Assembly (NCBI GenBank): GCA_963667795.1
Contig: OY764017.1
Coordinates: 2,356,079 to 2,420,078, forward strand
DNA length: 64,000 nt
Origin: Christensenellaceae bacterium
GTDB lineage: Bacteria > Bacillota > Clostridia > Christensenellales > CAG-138
Reading direction: 5' to 3'
Position 1 is the first letter of the stretch; each line of letters opens with the position of its first letter. This document shows positions 42,855 through 61,620 of the stretch, in pieces. A program made the position numbers and the translations under genes. The notes below the pieces were generated by a model. That model saw only the letters and a list, made by a program, of their open reading frames with translations. It was not told the origin of the DNA and made no database searches.

Positions 42855-42875
42855 GATGGAAAATGAGAGAAACGG

Positions 42876-43916: not shown

Positions 43917-43995
43917 CAGCTTAAAGCGAATCCATGCCGATACCGAAAGAATGAGTTGACACGCAGGACTGGACATAGGAGAGGACACGGTTAGC

Positions 43996-45114
43996 ATGAA
44001 GATATTGATCACGGGCGCCAGCGGGTTCATCGGCAAGAATCTAATTTCCACACTGAGAACCTATGGATATACCGATATCCTGTATTACGATGCGGACACT
44101 CCTGCGGAACGGCTTGAGCGTTACTGCGCAGAGTGTGAATTCGTCTATCATCTTGCGGGGGTCAATCGTCCCAAGACACAGGATGAATTTATGCAGGGTA
44201 ATTTCGGGTTTACCGACACGCTGCTTCGCACGCTGATCAAATATAGAAACAACTGCCCGATTATGTTTGCAAGCTCCACACAGGCCGCCTTACCGAATCT
44301 TTACGGCAGAAGCAAAAAAGCAGGTGAAGAACTGTTCTTTCAGTATCAGCGCGAGACAGAAGCGAAAGTCTATGTATTCCGATTTCCAAACGTATTTGGT
44401 AAATGGTCGAAACCAAACTACAACAGCGCGATTGCGACGTTTTGCTATAACATTTCACATGATTTACCGATTACGGTCAACGACCCGTCGACCGAGCTGC
44501 ACCTTGCATACATCGACGATGTTGTCGAAGCGCTTATTGCGCTGCTGGATGACGAAACGACGATGGAAGGCCCGTATTGTGTCGTTCCTATGATACATTC
44601 AGCAAAGCTTGGCGATATTGCCGATCGGATTCGTTCGTTCCGAAAGATACGGAAAGAAAATGAACTGCCGGATATGAGTGCACCGCTGACACGCAAGCTC
44701 TATGCAACGTATTTGAGTTTTTTGCCGACCATGGAATTTGCGTATCCACTGACGATGCATGAAGACGACCGCGGGAGTTTTACGGAGTTTTTGCGCTCCG
44801 ACAGCGGTGGACAGGTTTCCGTCAACATCAGCAAACCGGGCATTGTAAAAGGCAACCACTGGCACCACACGAAGACCGAGAAGTTTCTCGTAGTCTACGG
44901 GTCAGGCGTGATTCGTTTTCGCAGTCCTGATGTGGAGGAAGTTTTGGAATACCATGTCAGCGGAAAGAAGCTGGTCGTGGTAGACATCCCGGTCGGGTAT
45001 GCGCACAGCATTGAAAATACGGGTAAATCAGATATGGTGACGCTGATGTGGGCGAGCGAATGCTTCGATCCTGAACATCCGGACACCATTGCAACGGAGG
45101 TTCAACGAGCATGA
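43996..45114 (+). CDS. fnlB: CapF/FnlB/WbjC reductase-epimerase (SDR N-domain + cupin C-domain)
   Basis: 'MKILITGASGFIGKNL', 'HLAGVNRP', 'FGKWSKPNYNSAIATFCYNI' and 'DDRGSFTEF..GQVSVNISKPGIVKGNHWHHTKTEKFLVV' are present. 372 aa. Confidence 0.9.
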   Translation: MKILITGASGFIGKNLISTLRTYGYTDILYYDADTPAERLERYCAECEFVYHLAGVNRPKTQDEFMQGNFGFTDTLLRTLIKYRNNCPIMFASSTQAALPNLYGRSKKAGEELFFQYQRETEAKVYVFRFPNVFGKWSKPNYNSAIATFCYNISHDLPITVNDPSTELHLAYIDDVVEALIALLDDETTMEGPYCVVPMIHSAKLGDIADRIRSFRKIRKENELPDMSAPLTRKLYATYLSFLPTMEFAYPLTMHEDDRGSFTEFLRSDSGGQVSVNISKPGIVKGNHWHHTKTEKFLVVYGSGVIRFRSPDVEEVLEYHVSGKKLVVVDIPVGYAHSIENTGKSDMVTLMWASECFDPEHPDTIATEVQRA

Positions 45115-46235
45115 CGAAATTAAAGCTCATGACGGTGCTTGGCACACGACCGGAAATCATCCGCCTTTCGGCGGTGATTCCATGTGCGGACAAATACTTC
45201 CACCATATTCTGGTTCATACCGGACAGAACTACGATTATACGCTCAATAAAATTTTCTTTGACGATCTTGGTCTGCGTGCGCCGGACTACTACCTGGAAA
45301 GCGTCGGCAAGGACCTTGGTGAAACCATGGGCAATATCATTGCCAAGTCCTATGAAGTCATGCAGCGTGAAAAACCGGACGCACTTTTGGTGCTTGGAGA
45401 CACCAACTCCGCGCTGGCGGCGATTTCAGCAAAGCGGCTGAAGATACCGATTTTCCATATGGAGGCGGGCAACCGCTGCTGGGACTGGAACGTCCCCGAA
45501 ATGGTCAATCGCGTCATCGTAGACCGCATCAGCGACGTAAACATGCCGTACACGGAGCATTCCCGCCGATACCTGCTTTCGGAAGGATACGACGGAAAGT
45601 TTCTCTTCGTCACCGGATCGCCCATGCGTGAGGTGCTTGAAAAACAGAAGAACAAGATCCTCCAAAGCGACGTTCTTTCCCGTCTTGGATTGGAAGAGAA
45701 AAAATACATCCTACTTTCGGCACATCGTGAAGAAAACATTGACGACGAGGGACACTTTTTGTCACTCATGCGCGCGATCAACGATATTGCCGAGACCTAC
45801 GATATGCCGGTCGTTTATTCCACACACCCGCGAAGCAGGAAGTTCATCGAACAGCGCGCGTTTCGTTTTCACCCGAACGTCCGCTCGCTGGAACCGTTTG
45901 GCTTTTTCGACTATAACCGTTTGCAGCTTTCTTCGTACTGTGTGCTTTCCGACAGCGGGACGCTTTCGGAAGAAAGCGCCATGCTGGACTTTCCAGCCGT
46001 ACTGATCCGAACGTCCACCGAACGCCCGGAAGCGCTGGATGCGGGAACGATCGTGCTTGGCGGTGTAACGCGCAAGAGTGTCGAACAGGCGATGGCGCTG
46101 GCCGTCTCCATGTTTGAAAACCATGAACCGACCGCCATGCCGGACGACTATCAGGATGTCAATGTCAGCGTAAAGGTCGTCAAGATTATTGAAAGCTACG
46201 CAGACATCGTTATGCGCACAACCTGGGGCAGGTAA
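45111..46235 (+). CDS. fnlC: UDP-N-acetylglucosamine 2-epimerase, non-hydrolysing (CapG/FnlC/WbjD)
   Basis: 'VLGTRPEIIRLS', 'HTGQNYDY', 'LGDTNS' and 'HMEAGNRC' are present. 374 aa. It overlaps fnlB by 4 nt. Confidence 0.85.
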   Translation: MTKLKLMTVLGTRPEIIRLSAVIPCADKYFHHILVHTGQNYDYTLNKIFFDDLGLRAPDYYLESVGKDLGETMGNIIAKSYEVMQREKPDALLVLGDTNSALAAISAKRLKIPIFHMEAGNRCWDWNVPEMVNRVIVDRISDVNMPYTEHSRRYLLSEGYDGKFLFVTGSPMREVLEKQKNKILQSDVLSRLGLEEKKYILLSAHREENIDDEGHFLSLMRAINDIAETYDMPVVYSTHPRSRKFIEQRAFRFHPNVRSLEPFGFFDYNRLQLSSYCVLSDSGTLSEESAMLDFPAVLIRTSTERPEALDAGTIVLGGVTRKSVEQAMALAVSMFENHEPTAMPDDYQDVNVSVKVVKIIESYADIVMRTTWGR

Positions 46236-47455
46236 TGAGCACAGGCGTGTTTAGAAATGAGCCTCCAAGGGTTTTATATGGATCGACACTGATGAGCGCG
46301 GAGACGTTTTCCGCGCTGTTTTCGCGTGCGCAGGTACGTCCAAGTCTTGCCGCGCAAAAATATCATGGCCTTATGACAAGAGGATTGGCACACAATGGTG
46401 TTTCCATAACCGCGCTGAGCGTGCCGCCGGTTTCGCGGCAGACGAGCCAAAGGCGGTTTGTACGCGTCCATGATGAAAAAACAAACGGTGTGGCATTTCA
46501 TTATCTGCCGGTGGTTGTCATTCCAGGCCTTAAGCATGCTTTGGTTGCGGCAAGCGCGTTTTTGTATACACTGGTACACTTGGGACGATCGGATTATGCT
46601 GTTTGCGACGGATTGAATATAGCGTTAAGCATGGGGATTCGTGCCGCCGCAAAGTTGAAGCGACGTCCATGCATTGCGATTGTAACCGACGTGCCGGACA
46701 TCCTTGCCGGAGGACAAACACAAACTTCGAAAACGAACACGCATCTTCTGGCACGGTTTGACGGATATATTTTGCTAACCGAGGCGATGAACACGCTGGT
46801 TAACCCGTTCGGGAAACCGTTCTTGGTTGCGGAGGGGCAAGTTGACGCAGCCATGTCGGATGCTGCGAATGATTTGAGCGGCAAGTGCTCCGAAAAAATC
46901 TGTCTATACGCGGGCATGCTACACGAAAAATACGGCGTGGTCAAATTGGTGGAAGCGTTTCGAAAAGTGAACGATGAGGCGGCACGCCTGGTTCTTTATG
47001 GCGACGGCGATGCGACGGAACGAATCCGCGAAATTGCAAACGAAGATGAGCGGATCGAATACCGCGGCATGGCCGATAACCGAACCGTCGTGCAGGAAGA
47101 ATTGAAAGCGACGCTGCTGATCAATCCTCGGCCTTCGGACGAAGACTTCACAGCTTATTCGTTTCCGTCGAAAAATCTGGAGTACATGGTTTCGGGAACG
47201 CCTGTTCTAACGACGAAACTGCCGGGGATGCCGCGTGAATATGACCAATATGCATATCTGTTCGACGACGAATCGGTGGATGGAATGGCAAAAACACTGA
47301 ACGAAGTGCTCAGGCTTTCGCTTGAGGAACTGCATTCGATGGGGAGTCGAGCAAAAGCATTTGTATTAAGCAACAAATCCAATACCGCGCAGGCGCGGCG
47401 TGTACTCGAATTTATGAAGACGCTTGATCGGAACATAACAACACAAGGAAAGTGA
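46235..47455 (+). CDS. Glycosyltransferase family 4 (GT-B)
   Basis: The C-terminal half contains 'YAGMLHEKYGVVKLVEAF..LVLYGDGD' and 'FPSKNLEYMVSGTPVLTT' (E-x7-E type). Confidence 0.75.
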   Translation: MSTGVFRNEPPRVLYGSTLMSAETFSALFSRAQVRPSLAAQKYHGLMTRGLAHNGVSITALSVPPVSRQTSQRRFVRVHDEKTNGVAFHYLPVVVIPGLKHALVAASAFLYTLVHLGRSDYAVCDGLNIALSMGIRAAAKLKRRPCIAIVTDVPDILAGGQTQTSKTNTHLLARFDGYILLTEAMNTLVNPFGKPFLVAEGQVDAAMSDAANDLSGKCSEKICLYAGMLHEKYGVVKLVEAFRKVNDEAARLVLYGDGDATERIREIANEDERIEYRGMADNRTVVQEELKATLLINPRPSDEDFTAYSFPSKNLEYMVSGTPVLTTKLPGMPREYDQYAYLFDDESVDGMAKTLNEVLRLSLEELHSMGSRAKAFVLSNKSNTAQARRVLEFMKTLDRNITTQGK

Positions 47456-47459
47456 TAGG

Positions 47460-48518
47460 ATGGCTGCAAACGAATGTACAGCCCGACAACCAAATATACC
47501 GGAAGGTCCGCAGGCGCGTGTTTTATTCTTTGGCGGTGCGAGTGTATCCATAGAAACCGATATACCCTCGACCGATGTTGAACTGAAGCGGTATGCTAAC
47601 GAGCACGATTATCGTTGTGGAGCCCTGATCTCCGGCACCGGAACGCCCGACTGGCTCAAGGAGCAGGATATCGGCATCGTTTCGTTGCCCGGCATGACGC
47701 AACAGGAACTTTCCATCGTTCGGGAGCAATTGAGCCCATCGGTAGGAATCGGCATTGGTGAGAATGCACCGCTGGCAAACCGACCTGCGGTGATCGCGGT
47801 CAATGGTGTTCGCCTGGGCGTTTTGTCTTTAAACGAAACGACATGGCGCAGCGACGCATACGCCGTGGAAGCGGATATTGAGGATTTGTCCGTCTATGAT
47901 CATGTTCGCATGTTGCTTCCGCAATGCGATCATGTTATTGTATTTTGCCGAACAGGACTGCCGGGGTTTGAAATGCCGCTTCCAGAATGGCGCGAGCGAT
48001 ACCGGCACCTGATAGAATCGGGTGCTAGCATTGTGCTGGGGGTTCGCTCGGACGAGCCGCTAGGTTGGGAAGAGTATGGGCACGGCGTGGCGTTTTACGG
48101 CATCGGCACGTTAACAAGAGAGTCGCTTGCAGTATCGGTGACCTTTGAACGAAACGGCCGATTCACATACGAGTCACGACTGCTGGAAGCAATTGACGGT
48201 AAGATCAGCTTTTCAGCCGATGATACGAAAAAGGAAGCGATCAACGCAAAGAATGCACTGTTGGTTGACGAAGCACAGTATTTGGACGAAACTGAGCGCG
48301 CTTGTGTCGCTTTTTACCAAGCCGAAGGCTATACGGCGCTACTGAACGTGTGCGCAAAACGCGGCGCGCTTTCCGGCTTGCTGCGCAAAAAGCAAGCCGA
48401 CAATCGTCGAATCGACGAAGCGATGCTGAAAGATTTACTTGTAGGAACCTCGCGTAGGTATGCTGTACTGCGGGCACTGAACGCAACCGAACGGACGAAA
48501 GACGGGGACACGAAATGA
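47460..48518 (+). CDS. CapA/PGA_cap-like (metallophosphatase-fold) paralog with all metal-ligand motifs replaced
   Basis: It is collinear with the bona fide CapA-family protein at 59471-60658, but the motifs differ. GDLM becomes FGGA, ANNH becomes LPGM, PHWG becomes CRTG, GSHPH becomes GVRSD, and MGNF becomes IGTL. Confidence 0.55.
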   Translation: MAANECTARQPNIPEGPQARVLFFGGASVSIETDIPSTDVELKRYANEHDYRCGALISGTGTPDWLKEQDIGIVSLPGMTQQELSIVREQLSPSVGIGIGENAPLANRPAVIAVNGVRLGVLSLNETTWRSDAYAVEADIEDLSVYDHVRMLLPQCDHVIVFCRTGLPGFEMPLPEWRERYRHLIESGASIVLGVRSDEPLGWEEYGHGVAFYGIGTLTRESLAVSVTFERNGRFTYESRLLEAIDGKISFSADDTKKEAINAKNALLVDEAQYLDETERACVAFYQAEGYTALLNVCAKRGALSGLLRKKQADNRRIDEAMLKDLLVGTSRRYAVLRALNATERTKDGDTK

Positions 48519-49786
48519 AGATTTTATGGGTGGTCGCACCGATGCTGCCGCAGATTGCGAAACTGACAGGCAACGCCCGGCAATATGCGGGTGGTTGGCT
48601 GGTGTCCGTTTGCGACGGCCTGCTTTCAAACGAAGCAAACGAGCTGTTCATTTGTTATCTTTCGAACGGACGTAAACAAAGCGGAAAGAGCGGCAGGCTC
48701 TCCTATGAATCATATGGCCAGGACACGTTGCGGTATTCAGTTCGGACGCAGCAACAATTTGAAGAAATCCTCCGGCGTGAACAGCCGGACGTCATCCATG
48801 TTTGGGGGACGGAGTATCCGCTTACGTTGGCGATGACCAACGCCTGTGAACAGACGGGGATGCTTGATCGCATGGTCGTCAGCATTCAAGGGCTGTGTTC
48901 CGTTTATGCATGGCATTTTGCCGCAGGGTTGCCGCAGAAGGTGCTGCGAGGGGTGACCTTCCGGGATTTACTCCGGCGGGACAACATCTACAGGCAGCGA
49001 GAGAAATATGTCGTTCGCGGCGCGTTTGAAACGGCCGCACTGCAAAAAGCGGAGCATGTAATTGGCCGGACGGACTGGGACCGTACTTGCGTGCGTCAGA
49101 TCAATTCGGAAGCGTCATACCATTTTTGTAACGAGACTCTACGGGACACGTTTTATGAAGGAAAATGGAGCGCAGACGGCTGTAAACGGCACACGATCTT
49201 CGTTTCTCAGGGAAACTATCCGATCAAGGGGTTGCATAAGGCTCTTGCGGCGTTGGTGTTTTTAAAGAGAGACTTTCAGGATGTTCGACTGGTTACAACC
49301 GGTGCAGACCCGCGTGACGGTTCTTTGAAAAAGCGGATGCGGCGGTCAAACTATGCAAGATATCTGGCAAAGATTATTCGGGATTGGGGTTTGGACGATC
49401 ACGTTGCATTTGTCGGGATGCTGTCGGCAGAGCAGATGAAACAGCAGTATCTGGATGCACATGTTGCGCTGACGCCGTCGTCCATTGAAAACAGCTCAAA
49501 CTCCATCGGCGAAGCGATGTTGCTTGGTGTGCCCGTTGTGGCGAGCTATGTCGGCGGCACGCCGGACTTGCTGGACCATGGTGTGGAAGGATTCTTGTAT
49601 CCGTTCGACGCGCCGTACATGATGGCCGAATACATACGCCGTATTTTTTCAGACGACGCGCTTGCAATAAAACTTGGAGAGAATGGACGCGTCCGTGCAC
49701 AGAAACGGCACGATGCGGCACGTAATTTATCCGAATTAAACGAAATTTACGCACGCCTTGCAAGCGGAACTGAAAAGAAAGGCTGA
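48515..49786 (+). CDS. Glycosyltransferase family 4
   Basis: 'MKILWVV', 'GGW', 'ENSSNSIGEAMLLGVPVVASYVGG' and 'GVEGFLY' form GT4 motifs. 423 aa. Confidence 0.8.
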   Translation: MKILWVVAPMLPQIAKLTGNARQYAGGWLVSVCDGLLSNEANELFICYLSNGRKQSGKSGRLSYESYGQDTLRYSVRTQQQFEEILRREQPDVIHVWGTEYPLTLAMTNACEQTGMLDRMVVSIQGLCSVYAWHFAAGLPQKVLRGVTFRDLLRRDNIYRQREKYVVRGAFETAALQKAEHVIGRTDWDRTCVRQINSEASYHFCNETLRDTFYEGKWSADGCKRHTIFVSQGNYPIKGLHKALAALVFLKRDFQDVRLVTTGADPRDGSLKKRMRRSNYARYLAKIIRDWGLDDHVAFVGMLSAEQMKQQYLDAHVALTPSSIENSSNSIGEAMLLGVPVVASYVGGTPDLLDHGVEGFLYPFDAPYMMAEYIRRIFSDDALAIKLGENGRVRAQKRHDAARNLSELNEIYARLASGTEKKG

Positions 49787-49787
49787 T

Positions 49788-51125
49788 ATGAAACTTTTCG
49801 GCATGGACAACCCGATACGAAAGCGGTTTGCCGCAAACACAGGCTGGCTGATTGCGCAGAGCGTTTTTCAGTATGTCCTTTCGGCGGTCATCGGCATCAT
49901 TGCCGCGCGCTTTCTCGGCCCGGCGAATTATGGCATTCTTGGTTATGGCGTTTCGCTGATGGCCATGTTTCAGGCGTTTTGCACGCTTGGGCTGAATGAC
50001 ATACAGATCACGAATATGATCGAAACACCGGACGACATCGGCGGTATTATTGGAACAGCGCTTGTTATGCGTCTGACCTCATCGACGCTGTCCATCCTGG
50101 GCATCGCTGCTATAGCGATGATCTCCCGTCCCGGCGAAAAGCTGCTGCTGATCGTGACCGTGCTGCAAAGCCTCCAACTGATTCTCCAGGCATTCGATGT
50201 GTTTCGGCTTTGGTTCCAAATGAAGTTGATGAGCAAATATACCGCCATCGGCTCCATCATCGGCAATATCGCCTGCAGCGTGTGGCGCATCGTGCTCCTG
50301 ATTCAGGGTGCGTCGGTGGAGTGGTTCGCATTGACCAGCGTTATACAGATGTTTACGAATTACCTGTTCGTCGCACCGCTGTTTTTTGCAAAGGCAAAGA
50401 TGCGGCTTTGGGTTTCGTTTTCCATCGGAAAGCGGCTGCTGAAACGAAGCTGGCATTTTATCTTGTCGGGCTTGACCAACGCGGCTTCCGCACACTTCAG
50501 CAAGCTCTACCTTGGCGTCGCACTGGGTGACGCGATGCTGGGTTATTATAACGCCGCGTATACAATAGCAACTATGTGGCTGTTTGTTCCACTGGCAATT
50601 GTGGATTCGGCGTTTCCCGTGCTGCTGCAAACCAAGAAAAACAACCCGGAAGCATTCCGCCCACGGTACCAGCTGATGCTGATGGCGGTACTGGGAATCG
50701 GCGTCTGTGCAGGCATCGGCCTGAGCATTCTTGCACCTTGGATTATCAATCTGCTGTACGGTCCGGACTATGCGCCTGGCGCAGATGTTCTGCGTATCGT
50801 TGCCTGGATTGGGATTCTCTCTAATGTCGGTTCCGCGCGGAACATCTGGATTCAGGCGGAAAGCAAACAGAGCTCTGTGAAATACATTTCGTTGCTCTCA
50901 GCAATTGCAAGCATTGTGCTGAGTGTTATACTGATTCCAATCTTCGGCCTCAATGGTGCGGCAATCGCCTGTGTCGTGAGCTTCCTTGTTTCATCGTTTG
51001 TGGCAACGTGGGCGCTGAAGAGTACACGACCGTTTGTATCACTGTATCTTGGATCGTTTGGCACGCTCTATCAGGTTGGGCGAAACTTCCTGCGGAACAG
51101 AAAAGCTGGCGGTGATAACAAATGA
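49788..51125 (+). CDS. wzx: Oligosaccharide flippase Wzx (MOP/polysaccharide biosynthesis protein family)
   Basis: The start at MKLFGMD lies 2 nt after the upstream stop. About 445 aa with about 12 TM segments. 'NTGWLIAQSVFQYVLSAVIGIIAARFLGP.NYG' is present. Confidence 0.8.
   Translation: MKLFGMDNPIRKRFAANTGWLIAQSVFQYVLSAVIGIIAARFLGPANYGILGYGVSLMAMFQAFCTLGLNDIQITNMIETPDDIGGIIGTALVMRLTSSTLSILGIAAIAMISRPGEKLLLIVTVLQSLQLILQAFDVFRLWFQMKLMSKYTAIGSIIGNIACSVWRIVLLIQGASVEWFALTSVIQMFTNYLFVAPLFFAKAKMRLWVSFSIGKRLLKRSWHFILSGLTNAASAHFSKLYLGVALGDAMLGYYNAAYTIATMWLFVPLAIVDSAFPVLLQTKKNNPEAFRPRYQLMLMAVLGIGVCAGIGLSILAPWIINLLYGPDYAPGADVLRIVAWIGILSNVGSARNIWIQAESKQSSVKYISLLSAIASIVLSVILIPIFGLNGAAIACVVSFLVSSFVATWALKSTRPFVSLYLGSFGTLYQVGRNFLRNRKAGGDNK
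50327..51075 (+). repeat. Direct repeat copy 1 (749 bp, inside wzx)
   Basis: It is identical to 53682-54430 (offset 3355, no indels) except for A/G differences at 50362/53717 and 50400/53755. I verified this by comparing the sequence and three reading frames of ORF translations. Confidence 0.9.
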
Positions 51126-52154
51126 AACGATATAAAGTACTGATCATTCAGCAAACGATTCCCAGCTATCGGGTTCCGATTTTCAACTTGTTGGCGCAGA
51201 AAACGGATCTAACGGTTGTATACGAATATGGAGCAAGGCCATCGGATGCAGCATTTTGCATGAAACAAATGCAGACATTCCACATCACTCGCGTTGGAAA
51301 GGTTATCGCGACGGTTTGAAAAAACTGACGAACGGGTACGACGTCGTGATCAATTCTTACGATACACCGCTGTATGCGGTACGTAAGCTGGTTCGCCTAA
51401 AAAACATGGCTTTGGATTAATCCACTGGGGTATTGGCGTATCGGCCAGCTATTCGTCCCATTTTGATGCCGGGTATATAAACAGACCGTTTTACGATAAC
51501 ATTCTTAGGGAATCTGACGCCTGTTTGTTTTACAGCGTGTATCCAATTGAGAAATATTCGAATGCAGGCTGGTCGCGCGAGAAGCTTTTCACCGCACCGA
51601 ATACTGTCCGTGTTGTACGGGAAGAAACGCCGCAAAAAAAGGACACCATCTTGTTTTTAGGGTCACTCTATCCGCAAAAAGGATCTGATGAGTTGCTGGA
51701 ACAATATTTTCGGGCGTACAGCGTGGATTCAAATGTACCGAAACTGATTTTCATTGGCGACGGCAGCGAACGAGCTCGAATTGAAAGCTGGATATCCCAA
51801 AAGAATCTGAAAGATCGGATTTCGCTGACCGGGGCGATTTACGATGATGCCGTACTCGGCAAATATTTTTCAAAAGCGATCGTGTGCGTTTCACCAAAAC
51901 AGGCAGGGTTGACGGTTTTGAAGAGCATGGGGTGCGGCGTAGCGTATGTGACGAGAAAAGATGTGATTACCGGTGGCGAAATTTTTAACATTCAGGATGG
52001 GATAAACGGCGTTTTATACGAACAACAAGACGAACTGGGCGATATCATTCTTGATTTGATCAAAAACCCGGACAAATACCATCAAATGGGACGAAGAGCA
52101 AGGGAGCATTACGATCAAAATAGAAGCCGTCTGATATGGTGGATGGATTTATGA
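51122..52154 (+). pseudogene. Glycosyltransferase family 4 gene disrupted by at least 2 frameshifts
   Basis: The N-terminus 'MKRYKVLIIQQTIPSYRVPIFNLL' (51122-51319) reads in one frame and the middle 'GYRDGLKKLTNGYDVVI..' in a second. A third frame carries 'GLIHWGIGVS..' through the C-terminal GT4 domain (51525-52154: 'ILFLGSLYPQKG', 'FIGDGSER', 'GGEIF'). The second shift coincides with an A6 run at ~51403-51408, where A7 would restore the frame. Confidence 0.7.
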
Positions 52155-52203
52155 ACGCAATTGACTACGCCGCCCGAATATCCAAGGAACGGAGCGATGG
52201 ACG

Positions 52204-53319
52204 ATGAAAAAAGTAATGGTTATTTTCGGCACTCGGCCGGAAGCGATAAAAATGGGTCCTGTTGTGCTGGCACTAAAAGCAAGCGGCGACATTGAAACGG
52301 TCGTCTGCGTGACTGGGCAGCATAAGGAGATGCTTCAGCAAGTTCTTGATTGTTTTGCTATCGAACCGGATTATGATCTTGCCGTCATGCGTGAACGGCA
52401 GACGTTGTTTGACATCACGCGCAACATTCTGGCTTCCATCGGCGAAGTTTTACAGAAAGAAAATCCGGATATTGTGCTTGTCCATGGCGACACAACAACG
52501 ACGTTTGCTTCCGCGCTCGCAGCATTTTACCTGAAGATTCCGGTTGGACATGTGGAAGCCGGTCTCCGAACGCATGATCTGTACGCGCCGTTTCCGGAAG
52601 AATTTAACCGAAAAGCTACGTCGATCGTTGCGGCGCTTAACTTTGCGCCGACCGAATTAGCCAAACAGAATCTTCGGAGCGAAGGATATGATGAAGCAAG
52701 TATCTTTGTTACGGGAAATACGGCGATCGACGCCATGAAGACAACCGTGCAAGAAACGTTTGAATCTCCCCTGACGCATTGGCTTGGCGACAGCCGGCTG
52801 ATTCTTTTAACCGCCCATAGGCGAGAGAACATTGGTGAGCCGCTGAAAAATATCTTTCGTGCGGTTCGCAGGATCGTAGAGGAAACACCTGACGTTAAGG
52901 TGATCTATCCTGTGCACATGAACCCCGCAGTGCGCGAATCGGCAAACGAAATTCTCTCCGGCAACGACAATATTCGGCTCATCGAGCCGCAGGACGTGCT
53001 GACATTCCACAACCTGATGGCGCGCGCGTATTTGATTATGACCGACAGCGGCGGCATTCAGGAAGAAGCTCCTTCGCTGGGGAAACCGGTTTTAGTGCTG
53101 CGGGATGTAACGGAACGACCGGAAGGCATCGAAGTAGGCACGCTTAAGTTGACCGGGGCCGATGAACAGACGGTTTATCACGAAGCAATGCGCTTGTTAA
53201 CCGACAAGGATGAATATATGCGTATGAGTACGGCAAAAAACCCGTATGGCGACGGATTGGCATCCGAACGCATTGTCAAAGCAATATTGGAATGGAATGG
53301 TGGGCAAACAACGCTGTAA
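52204..53319 (+). CDS. wecB: UDP-N-acetylglucosamine 2-epimerase, non-hydrolysing (WecB/MnaA)
   Basis: 'VIFGTRPEAIKMGPV', 'VTGQHKEML', 'VHGDTTTTFA', 'HVEAGLRT' and 'TDSGGIQEEAPSLGKPVLVLR' are present. 371 aa. Confidence 0.9.
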   Translation: MKKVMVIFGTRPEAIKMGPVVLALKASGDIETVVCVTGQHKEMLQQVLDCFAIEPDYDLAVMRERQTLFDITRNILASIGEVLQKENPDIVLVHGDTTTTFASALAAFYLKIPVGHVEAGLRTHDLYAPFPEEFNRKATSIVAALNFAPTELAKQNLRSEGYDEASIFVTGNTAIDAMKTTVQETFESPLTHWLGDSRLILLTAHRRENIGEPLKNIFRAVRRIVEETPDVKVIYPVHMNPAVRESANEILSGNDNIRLIEPQDVLTFHNLMARAYLIMTDSGGIQEEAPSLGKPVLVLRDVTERPEGIEVGTLKLTGADEQTVYHEAMRLLTDKDEYMRMSTAKNPYGDGLASERIVKAILEWNGGQTTL

Positions 53320-53416
53320 ACAAAGCGAACGGACTTGTGTCCGGCCTCTGGAATTATTATAATAAGTAAGCGCTTTCAATCGTAGCGTGTTCAATGCGGA
53401 AGAGACGACGGAGCGG

Positions 53417-53681
53417 ATGAGAATCAATGTGGTTGGCCTTGGATCATCGGACTGCCAACGGCGCTGAGCCTGGTGCAGGTGGCTGGGAAGTTGTCGGAGC
53501 CGATAAAAACGGACAGCTGCTTCAAAGACTTTCGTCCGGCGAGACAACGTTTGAAGAAAAGGGGATGCCGGAGCTTTTTGAGAAAGCAGCAGCAAGCGGG
53601 AACCTCACATTTTCACAGACATGCGTTTCTGCGGACGTTTATATCGTTGCCGTTCCTACACCGTATATGAAGACCAACAAG
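53417..53681 (+). pseudogene. wecC: 5' remnant of a UDP-ManNAc dehydrogenase (WecC/Cap5O-like), frameshifted and truncated
   Basis: 'MRINVVGLG', 'IIGLPTALSLVQ' and 'GWEVVGADKNG...SGNL.F...ADVYIVAVPTPY' are spread over three frames. These form the Rossmann GLGYIGLP and the VPTP motif. The remnant ends abruptly at the junction with repeat copy 2. Confidence 0.65.
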
Positions 53682-54430
53682 CGCATTGACCAGCGTTATA
53701 CAGATGTTTACGAATTGCCTGTTCGTCGCACCGCTGTTTTTTGCAAAGGCAAAGGTGCGGCTTTGGGTTTCGTTTTCCATCGGAAAGCGGCTGCTGAAAC
53801 GAAGCTGGCATTTTATCTTGTCGGGCTTGACCAACGCGGCTTCCGCACACTTCAGCAAGCTCTACCTTGGCGTCGCACTGGGTGACGCGATGCTGGGTTA
53901 TTATAACGCCGCGTATACAATAGCAACTATGTGGCTGTTTGTTCCACTGGCAATTGTGGATTCGGCGTTTCCCGTGCTGCTGCAAACCAAGAAAAACAAC
54001 CCGGAAGCATTCCGCCCACGGTACCAGCTGATGCTGATGGCGGTACTGGGAATCGGCGTCTGTGCAGGCATCGGCCTGAGCATTCTTGCACCTTGGATTA
54101 TCAATCTGCTGTACGGTCCGGACTATGCGCCTGGCGCAGATGTTCTGCGTATCGTTGCCTGGATTGGGATTCTCTCTAATGTCGGTTCCGCGCGGAACAT
54201 CTGGATTCAGGCGGAAAGCAAACAGAGCTCTGTGAAATACATTTCGTTGCTCTCAGCAATTGCAAGCATTGTGCTGAGTGTTATACTGATTCCAATCTTC
54301 GGCCTCAATGGTGCGGCAATCGCCTGTGTCGTGAGCTTCCTTGTTTCATCGTTTGTGGCAACGTGGGCGCTGAAGAGTACACGACCGTTTGTATCACTGT
54401 ATCTTGGATCGTTTGGCACGCTCTATCAGG
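53682..54430 (+). repeat. Direct repeat copy 2 (749 bp)
   Basis: See copy 1. Confidence 0.9.
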
Positions 54431-54471
54431 CAGTGAGGAATTACTTGAGAAATAGCAAGGCGGGCGCTTAG
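53682..54471 (+). pseudogene. 3' fragment (~260 codons) of a second wzx, with its own divergent last ~14 codons
   Basis: It matches wzx residues ~181-430 and then reads 'QAVRNYLRNSKAGA*', where copy 1 reads 'QVGRNFLRNRKAGGDNK*'. It lacks the N-terminal ~180 codons and has no start context of its own. Confidence 0.8.
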
Positions 54472-54501
54472 AAGAAACCGAGAATATAAGAGGCTCAACA
54501 A

Positions 54502-55674
54502 ATGAAAATCGTACATATTGTTCAACATTATATGCAAGGACATACGTATCAGGAGAATTATCTGCCTGCTGCGATGGCGAAGCTCGGACATGATGTAACA
54601 ATCATTTCCGGTGTGGACAATCCGGACTTTTTTAAAGAACCACAGCATAAGCGCGGAGATAAAATCCGGGATAAAGGCGTTACAATTCGCTACACGAAAA
54701 TAGGCTACAAACGGTTTTATACGCCGGTTCAAAATCTTTACGAGTTTTTATGCGAGGAGAAACCGGAGTTTGTGTTTGTTCACGGGTTCATCCTTACAAG
54801 AAGTCCACAGCTGCTGCGGTACGCGCGCCAAAACCCGGACTGTGTGTTTGCAGCGGACACACATGAAACGTATCTGCTGGCGTACAATGCATGCTTCACC
54901 AACACGATTCGGGACCGCATTCGACATTTTGTATATTTCAAGTGTATTTACCAACTCTGGCGGCGCACGGTGGAACGCCGGTATTGCAGCGTGTTTTACG
55001 TCACGCCGCCGCGTAAGACGTTTGCAATGCGGGAGTTTGGTTTTTCAGAACATATCTTAAAACCACTTTGGATGGGTGCGGATTTTCAGACACTGCCATA
55101 CGAACAAAAGCCGGCATTACGCGGCGCGATGCGCGAAAAATACGGAATTCCAACAGACGCGAACATTATGGTACTGGCCGGCAAGCTGGATGCAAAAAAA
55201 CGTCCCGTGGAACTGGCCGAAGCATTTCGTCGATTGGATAATGCGAACTGGTGGCTGATGTATGTTGGAAGTACGGAAGCGGACGTTTGCAAGCGCATTG
55301 AACGGGCTGCGGGAGAGACAGAGCAAATCATTTTTACCGGGTTTTTATCCGGCAACGAGGTCCTTGAACATATCGCGGCAAGCGACCTTGCGGTATATCC
55401 CGGCGCGCATTCCGTCTTATGGGAGCAAACGGTTTGTCTAGGCATTCCCGCTGTCTTTTACGAGGAACATCCGGGAGATGCTGCGCATCTTTCGGATAGG
55501 AATGCATTATTTATTCATCACGGTGACGCCGAAGAAATTTTAGACCGTTTGCAGAAGCTCTGCGCTGACAAAGCGTTGTTGATACAAATGGGCAAGCGTG
55601 CGCGTCAGTATGCGGAGAGCAACCTTTCGTATGATAAAACAGCGGAAAAAGCGCTCCATGATTGCGGATTCTGA
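54502..55674 (+). CDS. Glycosyltransferase family 4
   Basis: 'MKIVHIVQHY', 'VLAGKLDAKKRP' and 'FTGFLSG..' are present, with 'AASDLAVYPG' in the C-terminal GT-B domain. 390 aa. Confidence 0.75.
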   Translation: MKIVHIVQHYMQGHTYQENYLPAAMAKLGHDVTIISGVDNPDFFKEPQHKRGDKIRDKGVTIRYTKIGYKRFYTPVQNLYEFLCEEKPEFVFVHGFILTRSPQLLRYARQNPDCVFAADTHETYLLAYNACFTNTIRDRIRHFVYFKCIYQLWRRTVERRYCSVFYVTPPRKTFAMREFGFSEHILKPLWMGADFQTLPYEQKPALRGAMREKYGIPTDANIMVLAGKLDAKKRPVELAEAFRRLDNANWWLMYVGSTEADVCKRIERAAGETEQIIFTGFLSGNEVLEHIAASDLAVYPGAHSVLWEQTVCLGIPAVFYEEHPGDAAHLSDRNALFIHHGDAEEILDRLQKLCADKALLIQMGKRARQYAESNLSYDKTAEKALHDCGF

Positions 55675-55890
55675 AAAGTGAAACGAGCTTTTTCGGACGT
55701 ATATCATTGCTTAGCCGCAAAAGAGACCCACAAAATCTTTGCAGAAATGGTTTTTGGATAAAAAGTGTGCGAAACAAACGGATTTCAGCTATAATAAAAC
55801 GATAAAATCGTGAAGAATATGAGCAAGCTATAGTAGAAACGGCGGCAACCATGACGAAAAAACGAACAATTATGAAACAATACACTTTGG

Positions 55891-55920
55891 TTGCGCGCTT
55901 TTCTTACGCTGTGATATAAT
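55891..55920 (+). promoter_or_regulatory. Promoter TTGCGC-18-(TGa)TATAAT upstream of ftsA
   Basis: Read directly from the sequence. The extended -10 is tgatataat. Confidence 0.45.
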
Positions 55921-55959
55921 ATCGCCGTATATGTTGAGAAGTTGGCGGAGGAGACCGCA

Positions 55960-57141
55960 TTGAAGCCGGCTGCGGTACTGGACATAGGGAGTTCAAAGGT
56001 TATCTGTCTGTGTGGCAGTTTTGTCAATCGGGATGGCATTACGGTGCACGGTGTTTCGGTGTGCCCGTATGAAGGCTATCAAAACGGCGTTTTTTCTAAT
56101 CATCGATCGCTGCATAGCGCAATCGTCGAAGCAGTATCCCGCGCCGAGCAGGAAGCCCGTATGCGCATCCGCGAAATCGCGTTGAGTGTACCGTCTCCGT
56201 TCTGCAAGATCGTGATGACGGAAGCGACACTGGCAATTGGCAGCCGCAACAAACGGGTGATGGCAGAAGATATTGACGACGTCATCTCGCTTTCCCTGAA
56301 AAAGGTCAAGCTGAGCGGGTATGTGCTCATGCACAGCACGCCGGTGTCCTTTACGGTTGGCGGGGTGGTGTCTTCTACACTTCCGGCGGGCGCGAAAACC
56401 GAAGAACTTGGCGCGCTCGTGTCGCATATGTATGTGCAGGAAGAGTTTGTCAAAACGATCGAGCAGGTGCTCGCAACGCTAGACATTGAGATTTCCATGA
56501 GCGTATCGACACAGCTTTGCGGTGCGCTGGCGATCATTCCCGAAAAGGAACGCGTACGCCCCGCGATACTCATCGACGTTGGATATACGCACACAGATGT
56601 GTCCATCGTGGAAAATGCGGCGCTGACCGATATACGCACCGTAGAAATAGGCGGCAAACATTTTGCTTCCGATCTCGCGTTCGGCCTTGACGTGCCGATT
56701 GAAACGGCGGAACTTGTGAAGCGGCGTTATGTCTTTTTGCAGGAACCACTCAGCACTACAGAAATCGTTCGTTCGCCTTCGGGCGCCAAGCGAGTCGACC
56801 ACGCTGCGATTGAGCTGATTATCGAAGCGCGTGCGAGCGAACTGGTTTCGATGATCCGCGATGCGCTCAAGGAAATGGGCGTTTCGCCGGAAGCAAGCCC
56901 GGTGACCTATTTAACAGGCGGCGGGATTGCAATGATGAAAGGCGGCATCGAATACCTCAAACGCGGCTTGCAGCTGTCCATTCAGCCGGACACGCCGTGG
57001 GTGGCGGATATGGATACGCCTAACTATACAAGCGCATTTGCGGCTTTGGATTTTGTTCTGCGCGCTACGAGCGACGATGTTGTAACCAACACCGCGCCCG
57101 CAACCGTTGCAGACAGGCTTCGTAACCTTTTTACCAAATAA
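55960..57141 (+). CDS. ftsA: Cell division protein FtsA
   Basis: A TTG start at 55960 is preceded by ggcggaggag; the ORF is open from TTG at 55942. The actin-like motif 'AVLDIGSSKV', 'LIDVGYTHTDVSIV' and 'YLTGGGIAMMKG' are present, and the amphipathic C-terminus is 'DRLRNLFTK'. Confidence 0.85.
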   Translation: MKPAAVLDIGSSKVICLCGSFVNRDGITVHGVSVCPYEGYQNGVFSNHRSLHSAIVEAVSRAEQEARMRIREIALSVPSPFCKIVMTEATLAIGSRNKRVMAEDIDDVISLSLKKVKLSGYVLMHSTPVSFTVGGVVSSTLPAGAKTEELGALVSHMYVQEEFVKTIEQVLATLDIEISMSVSTQLCGALAIIPEKERVRPAILIDVGYTHTDVSIVENAALTDIRTVEIGGKHFASDLAFGLDVPIETAELVKRRYVFLQEPLSTTEIVRSPSGAKRVDHAAIELIIEARASELVSMIRDALKEMGVSPEASPVTYLTGGGIAMMKGGIEYLKRGLQLSIQPDTPWVADMDTPNYTSAFAALDFVLRATSDDVVTNTAPATVADRLRNLFTK

Positions 57142-57153
57142 GGGGGACAAACT

Positions 57154-58485
57154 ATGTTTGAACCGGATTTCGAAAACACATCATTTGCTCAGATTAAAGT
57201 CATCGGCGTTGGAGGCGCTGGCTGTAACGCCATCAATCGGATGGTGCAGTACGGCCTCAGAGGCGTCGATTTTATTGCGATCAACACTGATAAGCAGGCG
57301 CTGTTTCTGGCAAAAGCACCAACAAAGATACAGATCGGCGAAAAGCTGACCAAAGGCCTCGGCGCGGGTGCCGATCCGGAGATCGGACGCAAGGCCGCGG
57401 ACGAAAGTCGTGAGTTGATCACGGAAGCGCTTCAGGATACCGATATGGCCTTTATCACCGCCGGCATGGGCGGCGGCACCGGGACGGGCGCTACGTCCAT
57501 CGTTGCCGAATGTGCGCGTGAACTGGGCATTTTGACCATCGCGGTCGTTACAAAGCCGTTCACGTTCGAAGGCAAGGTTCGCATGCGCAATGCGGAAATC
57601 GGCATTGCCGCGCTCAAGCCAGCCGTGGATACGCTGATTACAATTCCAAACGATAAATTAATCGATTTGGTAGGTCGCGCAAGCCTTCCGGACGCGCTCC
57701 GTGTTGCGGACGACGTGCTCCGCCAAGGTATTCAGGGCATTTCCGACCTGATTGCCGTACCGGCCATGATTAACCTCGACTTTGCAGACGTCAAAACCAT
57801 TATGCGCGAAAAGGGACTGGCGCACATGGGCATCGGCAATGCGTCCGGCGAAAAACGTGCGTCGGAAGCCGCACGGCAGGCCATCGAAAGCCCGTTGCTG
57901 GAGACCAGCATCAACGGCGCGCGCGGCGTGCTCATGAATATTACGGGCGGCCCGGATTTGAGCCTGCTCGAAGTCAACGAAGCCGCGGAACTCATCAGCG
58001 AAAATGTCGATCCCGAGGCGAACATCATCTTTGGCGCAGATATCGACGAAGCGATGGGTGAAGCGCTGCGCATCACGGTCATCGCAACCGGGTTCGACCG
58101 CACCGACCGCAGCGGCGGCGCACAGACGATCCCTGGTTACGGCGCCACGCCGTTCAGCTCGTTCCGCTCACCTTACGGCAATGCGAACATGGGTGGATCG
58201 CCTCAGCCGCAGCAGCCGCAACAGCCGCAACCGATGCAGCAGCCGCAGCAACCGCAACAGCCGCAGTATCAGCAGCCACAGACTATGCGTCCGAATCCCG
58301 GCCAGCCGGTCTATTCTTCGGCGTCGTATGCGCCGCGCCGCCCGATTATGGCGGACGAACCGGTTGCCGCGCCCGTGCCGCAGCAACGGCAGGATCAGCC
58401 GATCGGCGAAAATGATATTCGCCGCGACTATCAGGAAAAACCGAAGAGCAAGCTGGACGTGCCCGCGTTCCTTCGCAATCGGTAA
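57154..58485 (+). CDS. ftsZ: Cell division GTPase FtsZ
   Basis: '[17 protein letters not shown]' and '[10 protein letters not shown]' (tubulin signature) are present. A Q/P-rich linker is followed by the conserved C-terminal peptide '[10 protein letters not shown]'. Confidence 0.95.
58201..58281 (+). repeat. Low-complexity CAG/CCG-rich tract encoding the PQ-rich FtsZ linker
   Basis: cagccgcagcagccgcaacagccgcaaccg... translates as [27 protein letters not shown]. Confidence 0.7.
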
Positions 58486-58501
58486 ATTTGTTTGCACACA
58501 T

Positions 58502-58536
58502 AAAGCGCCGCAATTCTGCGGCGCTTTGTTGTTTTG
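58502..58536. terminator. Rho-independent terminator between convergent ftsZ and sanA-like genes
   Basis: aaagcgccgca-attc-tgcggcgcttt is followed by gttgtttt. Confidence 0.85.
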
Positions 58537-58551
58537 GTCGATGGAAATTCT

Positions 58552-59244
58552 TTAGTCGTTTGTAAGGTCCCCGTCACCCCAAATTGGGATTGCATCGCCA
58601 AGATAGGTTGGCTTTGGCATGAACAGCGTATAGAAGAAGTCTTTGTTTCGCGCAAGAATCTCTCTTGCAACAAAGCGCGGCATACCCGGATAGGTGCGAA
58701 TATCCGCCGCAACGCCATACGCCGTCAACCCCATTGTCTCGGCAACATACAATGCGCGGTAAAGGTGGTACTCCTGCGTGACGATGAGCACGCTTTCCAC
58801 GTGAAAGACGTCTCTTGCGCGATACAGGCTCTCATAGGTTGAAAAACCGGCGTGATCCATAAAGACGTTTTCCGACGGGATGCCCTGTTCGACGGCGTAT
58901 GCTTTCATCGCATTGACTTCATCATAATCCGTGTTTCCATGGTCGCCGCTCATCAGGATGCGGTCGGATGCGCCGTTTTCGTAAGCGGCGATGCCAGTGA
59001 TCAGGCGATCTTCCAGAATACCGCTTGGATTGCCGTTGTCCCAAACGCGAGCGCCGAGAATCAAAACGCAATCTACGTCCAATGTACCCGCTTCGTCCAA
59101 GGTGACGATACGGTCCCGGACGGACGCGCACATGATTCCGCTGACTGCAAATGGTGAAAGCAGCAATACCAACAAGAGAAGCGCACTTATCCAAATCAGC
59201 GTGTGCTTCCAATTGGAACGAGGTTGCTTAATTATATGTTTCAT
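58552..59244 (-). CDS. SanA/YdcF (DUF218) family membrane-anchored protein
   Basis: N-terminal TM segment. 'DCVLILGARVW.NG.PS..LEDRL', 'ILMSGDHG...YDEVNAMK' and 'HAGFSTYES' are present. Confidence 0.75.
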   Translation of the reverse strand: MKHIIKQPRSNWKHTLIWISALLLLVLLLSPFAVSGIMCASVRDRIVTLDEAGTLDVDCVLILGARVWDNGNPSGILEDRLITGIAAYENGASDRILMSGDHGNTDYDEVNAMKAYAVEQGIPSENVFMDHAGFSTYESLYRARDVFHVESVLIVTQEYHLYRALYVAETMGLTAYGVAADIRTYPGMPRFVAREILARNKDFFYTLFMPKPTYLGDAIPIWGDGDLTND

Positions 59245-59384
59245 GAGATATAGTATACCGGTGGTATTTGAAGCGGGTGAAACAAAACGTTAAATAATTT
59301 GCAAACAAGAAAACAACAGTTCTTTTTAAATAGTAGACACAGAGCGTTGGAGATGCATAATAAACAGCTATTATAAGTACATTG

Positions 59385-59413
59385 TTGAATTTCAAAATTG
59401 TCGTAGCTATAAT
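59385..59413 (+). promoter_or_regulatory. Consensus-like promoter TTGAAT-17-TATAAT
   Basis: Read directly from the sequence. It lies 58 nt upstream of the CapA-family gene start. Confidence 0.5.
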
Positions 59414-59414
59414 G

Positions 59415-59447
59415 AATGAAATGCCTGCTTTTGGGCATTCATTTTTT
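59415..59447 (+). other. Hairpin plus T6 immediately after the -10 box (a terminator-like element or an operator palindrome)
   Basis: tgaa(a)tgcc (59417-25) pairs with ggcattca (59434-41) and is followed by tttttt. The predicted TSS falls inside the 5' arm. Confidence 0.4.
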
Positions 59448-59470
59448 GTATAAAACATTGGGGTACACGA

Positions 59471-60658: not shown

Positions 60659-60753
60659 AGAAGCAAGTGAGAATAAAAAACTGACAAAACTTGACGTGTA
60701 TCCGTCGGGTTTTGTTTGCTATACTGGATGCAACGAAAGGAGAAAGACTGCCT

Positions 60754-61620
60754 ATGCATTATGCCGACTATAAAACCATCCTTTCGCCACAAAATGGAAT
60801 GAATCTGTACCGCGGCTGTTCGCACGGCTGCATCTATTGCGACAGCCGGAGCAAATGTTACCAAATTAACCACGCGTTTGAAGATATCGAAGTCAAGCGA
60901 AACGCAGCGCAAATTTTGGAAGCACAACTTCGCAAAAGAAGAAAACCCTGCATGATCGGTACGGGGTCGATGTGCGACCCGTATATTCCACTTGAAACAA
61001 AACTGCAGCTCACACGGCAATGCATCGAACTGATCGAGCGATACGGGTTTGGATTAGCGATCCTGACGAAATCCGCGCGAATTTTGCGGGATATCGACCT
61101 GCTGAAAAGGATCAATCAAAAGACAAAATGTGTTGTGCAGATGACCCTGACGACCTATGACGAAGCCCTGTGCAAAAAGCTGGAGCCAAATGTGTCTACA
61201 ACATTGGAGCGCTTTCATGCGCTGGAGACAATGCGCGACGAAGGTATCCCGACCGTGGTTTGGATGAGTCCGATTCTGCCGTTTATCAACGATACGGAGG
61301 AGAATATCGAAGGTTTGCTGGATTACTGCATTCGCGCAAAGGTGCACGGCATCGTAAATTTCGGTTTTGGGGTTACGCTGCGCGAAGGCGACCGCGAATA
61401 CTTTTATGCCGCGCTGGATCGTGATTTTCCGGGCGTGAAGCAGCGTTATATACAACAGTTCGGCAACGCATACGAATGCTCCAGCCCCAACAACAAGAAG
61501 CTGATGGAAATCTATCGATCGACGTGCAAACAGCGCGGAATTCTATACCGACCGAATGATGTGTTTGCGTATATGCATGAATTTGAAAGCAAAGACAGGC
61601 AGCTGTCCCTGTTTGAATGA
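60754..61620 (+). CDS. Radical SAM protein (SPL/DNA-photolyase-like family)
   Basis: The start is at MHYADYK (SD aaaggag). The 4Fe-4S motif is 'CSHGCIYC' (CxxxCxxC). 288 aa. Confidence 0.7.
   Translation: MHYADYKTILSPQNGMNLYRGCSHGCIYCDSRSKCYQINHAFEDIEVKRNAAQILEAQLRKRRKPCMIGTGSMCDPYIPLETKLQLTRQCIELIERYGFGLAILTKSARILRDIDLLKRINQKTKCVVQMTLTTYDEALCKKLEPNVSTTLERFHALETMRDEGIPTVVWMSPILPFINDTEENIEGLLDYCIRAKVHGIVNFGFGVTLREGDREYFYAALDRDFPGVKQRYIQQFGNAYECSSPNNKKLMEIYRSTCKQRGILYRPNDVFAYMHEFESKDRQLSLFE

Follow-up and report, generated by a model that had tools for sequence, protein, structure and literature searches.

Exchange of cassettes between conserved flanks is believed to be the way in which surface-glycan loci diversify, and intermediate or failed products of such swaps are rarely seen. 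Capsule and O-antigen cassettes are switched by homologous recombination in the conserved flanks, for example at the pneumococcal cps locus between dexB and aliA. Microhomology-mediated template switching is known as fork stalling and template switching (FoSTeS) or microhomology-mediated break-induced replication (MMBIR), and from the junctions of stress-induced amplification in E. coli. In homology-facilitated illegitimate recombination (HFIR), one junction lies within extended homology (the anchor) and the second at a short microhomology shared by sequences that are unrelated elsewhere. Most recombinants recovered in an E. coli screen for HFIR were duplications of 109-950 bp made by single crossover with a circular molecule that carried a chromosomal segment (PMC3240628). 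HFIR in natural transformation of Acinetobacter, S. pneumoniae and P. stutzeri is related in PMC5361080, which cites de Vries & Wackernagel 2002, Prudhomme et al. 2002 and Meier & Wackernagel 2003; HFIR-type displacement leaving orphan gene remnants has been described as well (PMC5361080). Here we analyze a window of 64,000 nt from a Christensenellaceae bacterium (assembly GCA_963667795.1, contig OY764017.1, positions 2,356,079 to 2,420,078 of the forward strand), in which the flippase gene wzx of a polysaccharide locus is partly duplicated around a 2606-bp insertion. We consider this structure to be probably a real and recent scar of an aberrant exchange between two alternative surface-polysaccharide cassettes, the resident being of one type (type B) and the incoming DNA of the other (type A).

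The direct repeat and the two cassette types

The duplicated segment is present as copy 1 (50327..51075, plus strand, within the complete wzx) and copy 2 (53682..54430, plus strand, part of a 5'-truncated wzx'). Comparison base by base bore out what the original prediction had read: the copies are collinear at a constant offset of 3355 bp without indels, 747 of the 749 bases are identical, and the identity ends abruptly at 51075/54430. The only two mismatches are A in copy 1 against G in copy 2, at 50362/53717 and at 50400/53755. Such a match is far beyond chance. To the left of the copies the flanks are unrelated (74 of 100 positions differ), and to the right 134 of 200 positions differ. A repeat search of 48000-57000 recovered the 749-bp pair and no other repeat family or inverted repeat, and BLAST of the unit found no third copy in the whole window.

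Gene calls in the locus were taken from NCBIfam and Pfam profile matches, and NCBIfam confirmed the predicted order wzx - GT' - wecB - wecC' - wzx' - GT, where GT stands for glycosyltransferase. All of these genes lie on the plus strand. The full-length wzx, a MOP-family flippase gene with a type-A tail, occupies 49788..51125 (NCBIfam Wzx_EPS and MOP flippase matches, translation). It is followed by GT_A, a GT4 glycosyltransferase pseudogene (51122..52207); by an intact wecB for a non-hydrolysing UDP-GlcNAc 2-epimerase (52204..53319; 526 bits on TIGR00236, cut-off 210); and by wecC', a 5' fragment of about 92 codons of a wecC-like NDP-sugar dehydrogenase gene, with two 1-base deletions (53417..53691). 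After these come wzx' (53682-54471), which consists of repeat copy 2 and a type-B tail, and GT_B, an intact GT4 glycosyltransferase gene of the type-B cassette (54502..55674). The first glycosyltransferase gene had been taken for truncated; it is full length and is broken by three 1-base deletions. With R for the 749-bp segment, the structure can be written U-R-[tailA-GT_A-wecB-wecC']-R-tailB-GT_B, the 2606-bp insertion standing between two direct copies of R. GT_A and GT_B are not orthologues (22% amino acid identity over 170 aa).

Beyond the repeat, copy 1 runs into the type-A tail (51076..51125, plus strand), which in alignment is about 80% identical to the type-A tail of relative L018, and copy 2 into the type-B tail (54431..54471, plus strand), which has one difference from relative L001 in the aligned stretch. 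The two tails are homologous to their stop codons and only about 55% identical, and the C-termini read ...YQVGRNFLRNRKAGGDNK for copy 1 and ...YQAVRNYLRNSKAGA for copy 2, as had been noticed earlier.

Nineteen loci were collected from relatives: one genome per species was scanned with Wzx, and metagenomes and proteins were searched in addition. The relatives of the window are Christensenellaceae, Oscillospiraceae and Clostridia metagenome-assembled genomes (MAGs); an E. coli origin was rejected, as megablast against 5,426 genomes gave no match. The closest, L001 (OY762278.1, a complete Christensenellaceae MAG chromosome, 90-97% identical in nucleotides), has wzx followed directly by GT_B and ftsA, that is, a clean type B. 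Window positions 40002-51075 align with L001 211-11288 and positions 53682-62000 with L001 10540-18875; since these L001 coordinates overlap, both repeat copies fall on a single 749-bp stretch of L001. When 51076-54430 was left out, global alignment showed the window to be collinear with L001 through the junction at 90-97%. Removal of one 3355-bp unit was predicted to give a clean wzx(tailB)-GT_B, and this is exactly the L001 arrangement; a relative with wzx directly followed by GT_B had also been expected, and L010, L012 and L013 (about 82% nucleotide identity) carry the same wzx-tailB-GT_B-ftsA order.

The other order, wzx(tailA)-GT_A-wecB-wecC-ftsA without GT_B, is a real arrangement found in L002-L008 and L014 (about 70-77% nucleotide identity). 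In L018 and L019 (ENA ERZ15186021 / ERZ15186017, about 80%), wzx, an intact GT_A, wecB and ftsA follow each other without wecC (L018 8937-11487). Only an 18-aa trace of wecC is left in the 365-bp spacer of L018, which indicates that wecC was lost independently in the L018/L019 lineage. No wecC remnant was detected in the type-B intergenic DNA of the window or of L001. Two copies of wzx occur in no relative among the 19 loci, and in none does a second full wzx come after an intact wecC at this position.

As for the relationship of the two types, the synonymous divergence (dS) of ftsA from the window is 0.45 to L018 (type A) and 0.41 to L012 (type B). Because both types are similarly distant from the window, they are alternative cassettes for a single site, which has wzx as its left border and as its right border a point about 100 bp upstream of ftsA, where homology to both locus types resumes (right conserved flank, 55836..57141, plus strand). 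In the window, type B is combined with part of type A, which bears out the mosaic that had been suspected.

An old origin of this mosaic has to be weighed against the same comparison. The hybrid might be an intermediate in the origin of type B from type A, or a full 3355-bp tandem duplication whose second cassette was later replaced, with gene conversion homogenizing the copies. Type A is the deeper and more widespread state (L002-L008), great age would give time for the five frameshifts of the insert, and unequal crossing-over at microhomology is a standard origin of tandem duplications. However, the repeats differ by 0.27%, as against a wzx dS of 0.175 to L001 and about 0.9 to L012/L013, and no remnant interrupts the clean type B of L001, L010, L012 and L013. 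Since the repeat covers 749 of the 3355 bp and no more, at least two further events would be needed, and a 749-bp direct repeat 2.6 kb apart should be deleted long before such an age. It seems very improbable that the structure is old. The idea of an ancient step from which type B arose was therefore rejected, as there is no trace in the type-B relatives and the repeats are 99.7% identical.

Three other kinds of origin were rejected. In a simple tandem duplication the whole 3355-bp unit should recur head to tail, whereas only 749 bp do so and type-B tail and GT_B follow 54430. A transposon or insertion sequence was discarded for lack of any transposase family match and of inverted repeats (0 found), and because the 'duplication' is 749 bp long. 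For a plasmid or phage fragment, the matches of the insert to such elements are only generic wecB homology at 64-73%.

The wecC'/wzx' joint and the decay of the insert

The two ends of the insert are of different kinds. At the left end, the identity of the copies stops abruptly at 51075 and the type-A tail begins, so that this junction lies within extended homology, the wzx sequence up to 51075 forming the anchor in the sense of HFIR. The 13 nt preceding the break (ACGCTCTATCAGG), which may be a microhomology as expected of template switching at this end, are identical in the type-A relative L018. At the right end, wecC' passes into copy 2 at 53682. In all six type-A relatives examined, wecC encodes ...VPTPY-L-K-x-x-K-R-I-D-P..., and L002 wecC reads AAGCGCATTGACCC at the homologous site. 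The window wecC' reads ...VPTPYMKTNK-R-I-D-Q, with the codons AAG CGC ATT GAC CAG, and the repeat starts at the C of CGC. The wzx of both the window and L001 reads TTC GCA TTG ACC AGC at 50325-50339, and both have TTCGCATTGACCAG at the joint.

It can be seen that the 10-mer CGCATTGACC at 53682..53691 (plus strand) reads both as wecC (AAG|CGC ATT GAC C, K R I D P) and as wzx, where its partner site is at 50327..50336 (plus strand; TTC GCA TTG ACC). The wzx of L001 carries the same 10-mer at the partner site, and more distant relatives are without it. Because the first 10 nt of copy 2 also continue the wecC frame as the conserved K-R-I-D-P, the illegitimate joint lies within the microhomology. 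This microhomology is of up to 10 nt, its exact extent depending on the wobble bases of the donor. The probability of wzx sequence spelling R-I-D-P (first base) in the frame of wecC by coincidence is, by our estimate, about 3e-5. The second junction thus stands at a short microhomology between otherwise unrelated sequences. Copy 2 had been said to join a truncated wecC without transition; the microhomology in which the joint lies had been missed.

The 152-aa chimeric open reading frame (ORF) that spans the joint, P0121, was searched for in 5.8 billion proteins, which yielded the window's own copy only, together with unrelated frameshifted wecC N-termini (P0122-P0125). The latter are short ORFs of 115-177 aa from other metagenome assemblies which lose the frame soon after VPTPY. 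They may be frameshifted genes or assembly errors, unrelated to the junction of the window.

With L002 proteins as queries, tblastn placed GT_A in four frame segments (+3/+2/+1/+3) and found the N-terminus of wecC' frame-shifted. DNA alignments put the 1-base deletions of GT_A after 51303, after 51402 and at about 52114-52131, and those of wecC' after 53444 and after 53471. If the third deletion is put in the AGAAAG run, the repaired GT_A reads through without a stop and gives 243 identities in a 362-column alignment with the GT_A of L018. An in-frame TAG in the repaired GT_A was considered as a nonsense mutation and rejected, being gone with this placement according to the tblastn frames. Repaired wecC' reads MRINVVGLGxIGLPTALSL.... 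Contraction of short runs (T3, A7, A3, G3) fits four of the five deletions and does not fit the fifth. By these readings GT_A and wecC' are broken and presumably dead, and wecB, which stands between them, is intact. We infer that neither the 261-aa wzx' ORF nor P0121 is a real gene; for annotation, the scar explains the truncated wzx, the split glycosyltransferase gene and the chimeric 152-aa ORF.

The two base differences between the copies can be given a direction. The A at 50362 in copy 1 belongs to the Tyr of T/A-N-Y, which is kept in every relative readable there, and copy 2 has Cys (53717 G). The A at 50400 is the first base of a Met codon, and copy 2 has Val (53755 G). Copy 1 therefore carries the ancestral A at both positions, and both differences are derived changes of the truncated copy 2, which suits a copy that is dead. 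From the joint it is 36 nt to the substitution at 53717 and 74 nt to that at 53755, and all but one of the five deletions are found no farther than about 330 nt from a junction; the probability of such clustering is estimated at about 0.02 if positions are uniform, and at about 0.1 if wecB is left out as selected. All seven recent-looking changes (five 1-bp deletions, two A-to-G) are confined to the insert and the beginning of copy 2. GATC is created by two of the deletions, and CCTGG is the site of one. A methylation-linked base-calling error was considered as their cause, but the other genes of the 64 kb are free of such lesions; errors made during the event, decay or base-calling may each account for the changes.

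Both the joint and the lesions bear on the possibility of an assembly artefact, in which a metagenome assembler strung in tandem a type-A and a type-B strain that share wzx, the frameshifts being uncorrected long-read errors at low coverage. All five lesions are 1-base deletions confined to the insert, four of them fitting homopolymer contraction, and single-base homopolymer deletions are the usual type of long-read error. However, the 1116-bp wecB at the centre of the insert is free of errors, and no broken gene was seen among the long ORFs in the rest of the 64-kb window. A mis-join or chimeric read is not expected at a 10-nt microhomology which keeps the conserved KRIDP reading. Overlap and de Bruijn assemblers need overlaps much longer than 10 nt, and a microhomology joint is a hallmark of illegitimate recombination in vivo, unlike an assembler mis-join or a ligation chimera. 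In addition, the path of haplotype A stops in the middle of wecC, whereas a bubble would rejoin at ftsA. Taken together, these points leave the artefact only a slight chance of being the explanation.

Direction and route of the proposed exchange

The product can be derived as follows. The resident locus would have been type B (wzx-tailB-GT_B-ftsA), as in L001, and DNA from a type-A locus (wzx-tailA-GT_A-wecB-wecC-ftsA) would have recombined with it. On the left side the exchange would have run through the wzx homology, the identity ending at 51075. On the right side the incoming piece would have ended inside wecC, with no homology to pair, and would have been joined illegitimately at CGCATTGACC to wzx 50327, 749 bp upstream of the left breakpoint. 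The topology of this product is that of Campbell integration of a 3355-bp circle. The original prediction of a single Campbell-type crossover holds as regards topology and has a precedent (PMC3240628); it is one of three routes, and neither replicon nor integrase is present in the insert. Marks of a circular donor (replicon, integrase, att-like site) were searched for in the insert, which holds only GT_A, wecB and wecC', and none was found. Single crossover of a circle, a linear one-sided homologous plus illegitimate event (HFIR) and replicative template switching would all give the same product and fit equally well, and the sequence does not discriminate between them.

With respect to direction, dS to L001 is 0.17-0.25 for the GT4 gene upstream of wzx, wzx, GT_B and ftsA (48515-57141; wzx 0.175, GT_B 0.22), as compared with 0.32-0.67 for the seven genes upstream of 48515 and 0.39 for ftsZ. 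This low-dS stretch is suggestive of an older block of recombination with the cassette at its centre. The scatter from gene to gene against L001 is large, the gene at 59471-60658 giving 0.15. Entry of type-A DNA into a type-B locus is favoured because GT4, wzx, GT_B and ftsA are similarly close to L001, so that the type-B arrangement would have been co-inherited. It is also favoured because a type-B fragment entering the reverse way, with 749 bp of perfect homology, should recombine legitimately.

Several observations weigh against the exchange as just described. First, the structure rests on one assembly. Exact look-ups of the GT_B and wecB proteins and of P0001 gave no entry from sister strains. 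The wecB product P0001 and the chimeric ORF P0121 are found on a single 3,580,236-bp contig only, the relatives are themselves MAGs, and the 35-mer across the junction has 0 matches in JGI metagenome contigs; these points would suit an assembly artefact as well. Secondly, the linear and circular versions require a type-A donor wzx which is about 100% identical up to 51075 and then about 45% different over the next 50 bp, and a near-isogenic type-A strain of that kind is not among the sampled genomes. A Wzx search of the protein collection for same-species variants with tail A or tail B gave nothing closer than 92%. Thirdly, five deletions in the approximately 1.35 kb of GT_A plus wecC' stand against two substitutions in the 749-bp repeats. 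This excess of indels is too high for a recent event followed by neutral decay, and an extra assumption is needed: it is possible that the type-A cassette had decayed already in its source, that the event is of greater age than it seems, the repeats being homogenized by gene conversion, that synthesis during the event was error-prone, or that the deletions are consensus errors of long reads in a low-coverage segment. Finally, a type-A resident that receives a type-B fragment would give the same sequence, which leaves the direction unproven.

In that reverse direction, a type-A resident, possibly decaying, would gain a fragment consisting of the 3' part of wzx, tailB, GT_B and ftsA by HFIR, with a homology anchor on the ftsA side and the joint inside wecC. 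The 3' three-quarters of wecC would be deleted, GT_B added and the old cassette left behind. Such an event yields the identical product and has the classical geometry of HFIR, in which foreign DNA is added beside the anchor and recipient sequence is lost (PMC5361080). Had GT_A and wecC been frameshifted beforehand, gain of GT_B would be selected and the deletions would predate the event, which would remove the paradox of indels and substitutions. In dS from L018, the insert (1.35-1.9) and the flanks (1.1-1.3) are similar, so that the type-A genes could be native. However, given 749 bp of perfect homology to wzx, double homologous replacement should vastly outcompete an illegitimate joint placed right where this homology begins. 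Moreover, the GT4 gene at 48515-49786 and wzx share the low dS to L001 with GT_B and ftsA, which is simplest if the whole type-B block was resident. The reverse direction thus appears unlikely, though it deserves to be kept in mind.

Among the three routes, a single replicative step deserves separate mention. A strand copying the resident wzx would switch at 51075 to type-A DNA, copy 2.6 kb, and return at CGCATTGACC, 749 bp back. The type-A template could then be quite divergent, both repeat copies would come from the same template and hence be identical, and the five deletions and two A-to-G changes, lying in the newly made tract and mostly no farther than about 330 nt from the two switch points, could be the error trail of a low-fidelity polymerase. 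We give this version only a small chance. If true, an MMBIR-like event would have been caught in a bacterium in nature, together with its shower of mutations.

Whatever its route, entry of type-A DNA into a type-B locus would have consequences for function and stability. Since wzx is complete (chimeric, with a swapped 17-residue tail) and GT_B is intact, the strain probably still makes the type-B glycan. A recent serotype-locus exchange had been proposed; the dead type-A genes, which had been missed, speak for an abortive exchange which left a scar and against a working serotype switch. If the repeats recombined with each other by homology, exactly 3355 bp would be lost and a locus of the L001 type regained. 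RecA-dependent deletion occurs between repeats of several hundred bp, and the structure should be unstable unless wecB is needed. A precise 3355-bp deletion polymorphism is hence predicted.

Locus context and comparison with known systems

The genes around the scar belong to a polysaccharide locus. In order, NCBIfam and Pfam matches give a BTAD regulator (39486-40772), a fusion of a polyprenyl-phosphate sugar transferase with GT4 (40884-42854), an FnlA-like, WbcJ(FnlB)-like and FnlC-type 2-epimerase trio (42876-46235), a glycosyltransferase (46235-47455), a PGA_cap-like gene (47460-48518; weak match, E 3e-10) and a GT4 glycosyltransferase (48515-49786); downstream of the cassette lie ftsA (55942-57141, plus strand) and then ftsZ. 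The fused initiating enzyme has 656 aa, with a Bac_transf phosphotransferase domain at residues 50-234 and a complete GT4 (WcaI-like) at residues 251-648. A second gene of the PGA_cap family, after ftsZ at 59471-60658, gives a strong match (E 5e-66). In the trio, the first two matches are under the curated NCBIfam cut-offs (FnlA 530 bits, cut-off 730; WbcJ-type reductase 385 bits, cut-off 500), and the 2-epimerase scores 239 bits (cut-off 210); the trio suggests a 6-deoxy-L-HexNAc sugar.

The longest ORF of wzx begins at 49758 (TTG); its homologues begin at the ATG at 49788, and the protein P0127 begins MKLFGMD. The matches of wzx are far under the NCBIfam equivalog cut-offs, and its product is 96% identical in amino acids to that of L001. 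The product of the window wecB is 79% identical to that of L002 and 89% to P0002 of L018. The full-length wecC homologue of L002 scores 391 bits on TIGR03026 (cut-off 190), which assigns it at the subfamily level only; its best specific match, UDP-ManNAc dehydrogenase, is at 326 bits under the cut-off of 459.

The repeat contains a promoter-like site (TTGCAA-16-TATACT with TG), which is thus present twice (50905-50932 and 54260-54287), before GT_A and again before GT_B. It was recognized by consensus only, and such sites are no commoner in the region than in shuffled sequence. A scan of 48000-56200 gave 7 promoter-like sites against 8.4 in shuffles, and 16 terminator-like sites against 10.7 (sd 3.2). 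As these counts are within or near those of shuffled sequence, the scan is uninformative on polarity at GT_B.

In gene content, the locus resembles S. aureus cap5/8 when the type-A wecB and wecC are added to the FnlA/B/C-type trio, several of the matches here being under cut-offs; no search for a Wzy-type polymerase was made. Like loci that undergo capsule switching, it has alternative gene sets between conserved flanks (here wzx and ftsA) with a patchy distribution among lineages. It differs in that the exchange was failed or untidy and in that the variable part is small, one glycosyltransferase gene with or without wecB and wecC.

Campbell-type integration (PMC3240628) is alike in the direct duplication of the homology segment flanking the insert, 749 bp here, and in being reversible between the repeats. 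It differs in that plasmid backbone, replicon and selectable marker are absent here, and the circle would be type-A chromosomal DNA closed at a 10-nt microhomology. The wecC'/wzx' microhomology could be such a closure, and could equally be made in linear or replicative recombination. HFIR shares with the present case one homologous end, one microhomology end and heterologous DNA trapped by the anchor, as a rare by-product of homologous exchange. If the resident was type B, recipient DNA was here duplicated and not deleted. FoSTeS and MMBIR are alike in a templated insertion flanked by a resident duplication, in a joint microhomology and perhaps in small mutations near the breakpoints; they differ in that the microhomology can be checked at one junction only in the present case, and the donor sequence for dating the changes is absent.

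Sequential displacement at type VI secretion effector-immunity loci and the orphan 3' ends of Rhs and contact-dependent inhibition genes (PMC5361080) likewise show a variable cassette downstream of a conserved gene, remnants beside the working cassette and repeated 3' ends. In the present locus the genes are for a glycosyltransferase and sugar-nucleotide enzymes, the remnant is without obvious benefit, unlike immunity genes, and a single step is visible. Both cassette types, the breakpoints, the 10-nt joint and, in a sister genome, the clean parental arrangement are all readable here, in an uncultured gut or digester Firmicute lineage. The locus suggests that illegitimate one-sided recombination acts on glycan loci in nature and leaves dead genes behind. 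Measured against these systems, it is a clear but ordinary natural case of a botched cassette exchange, and no new kind of system.

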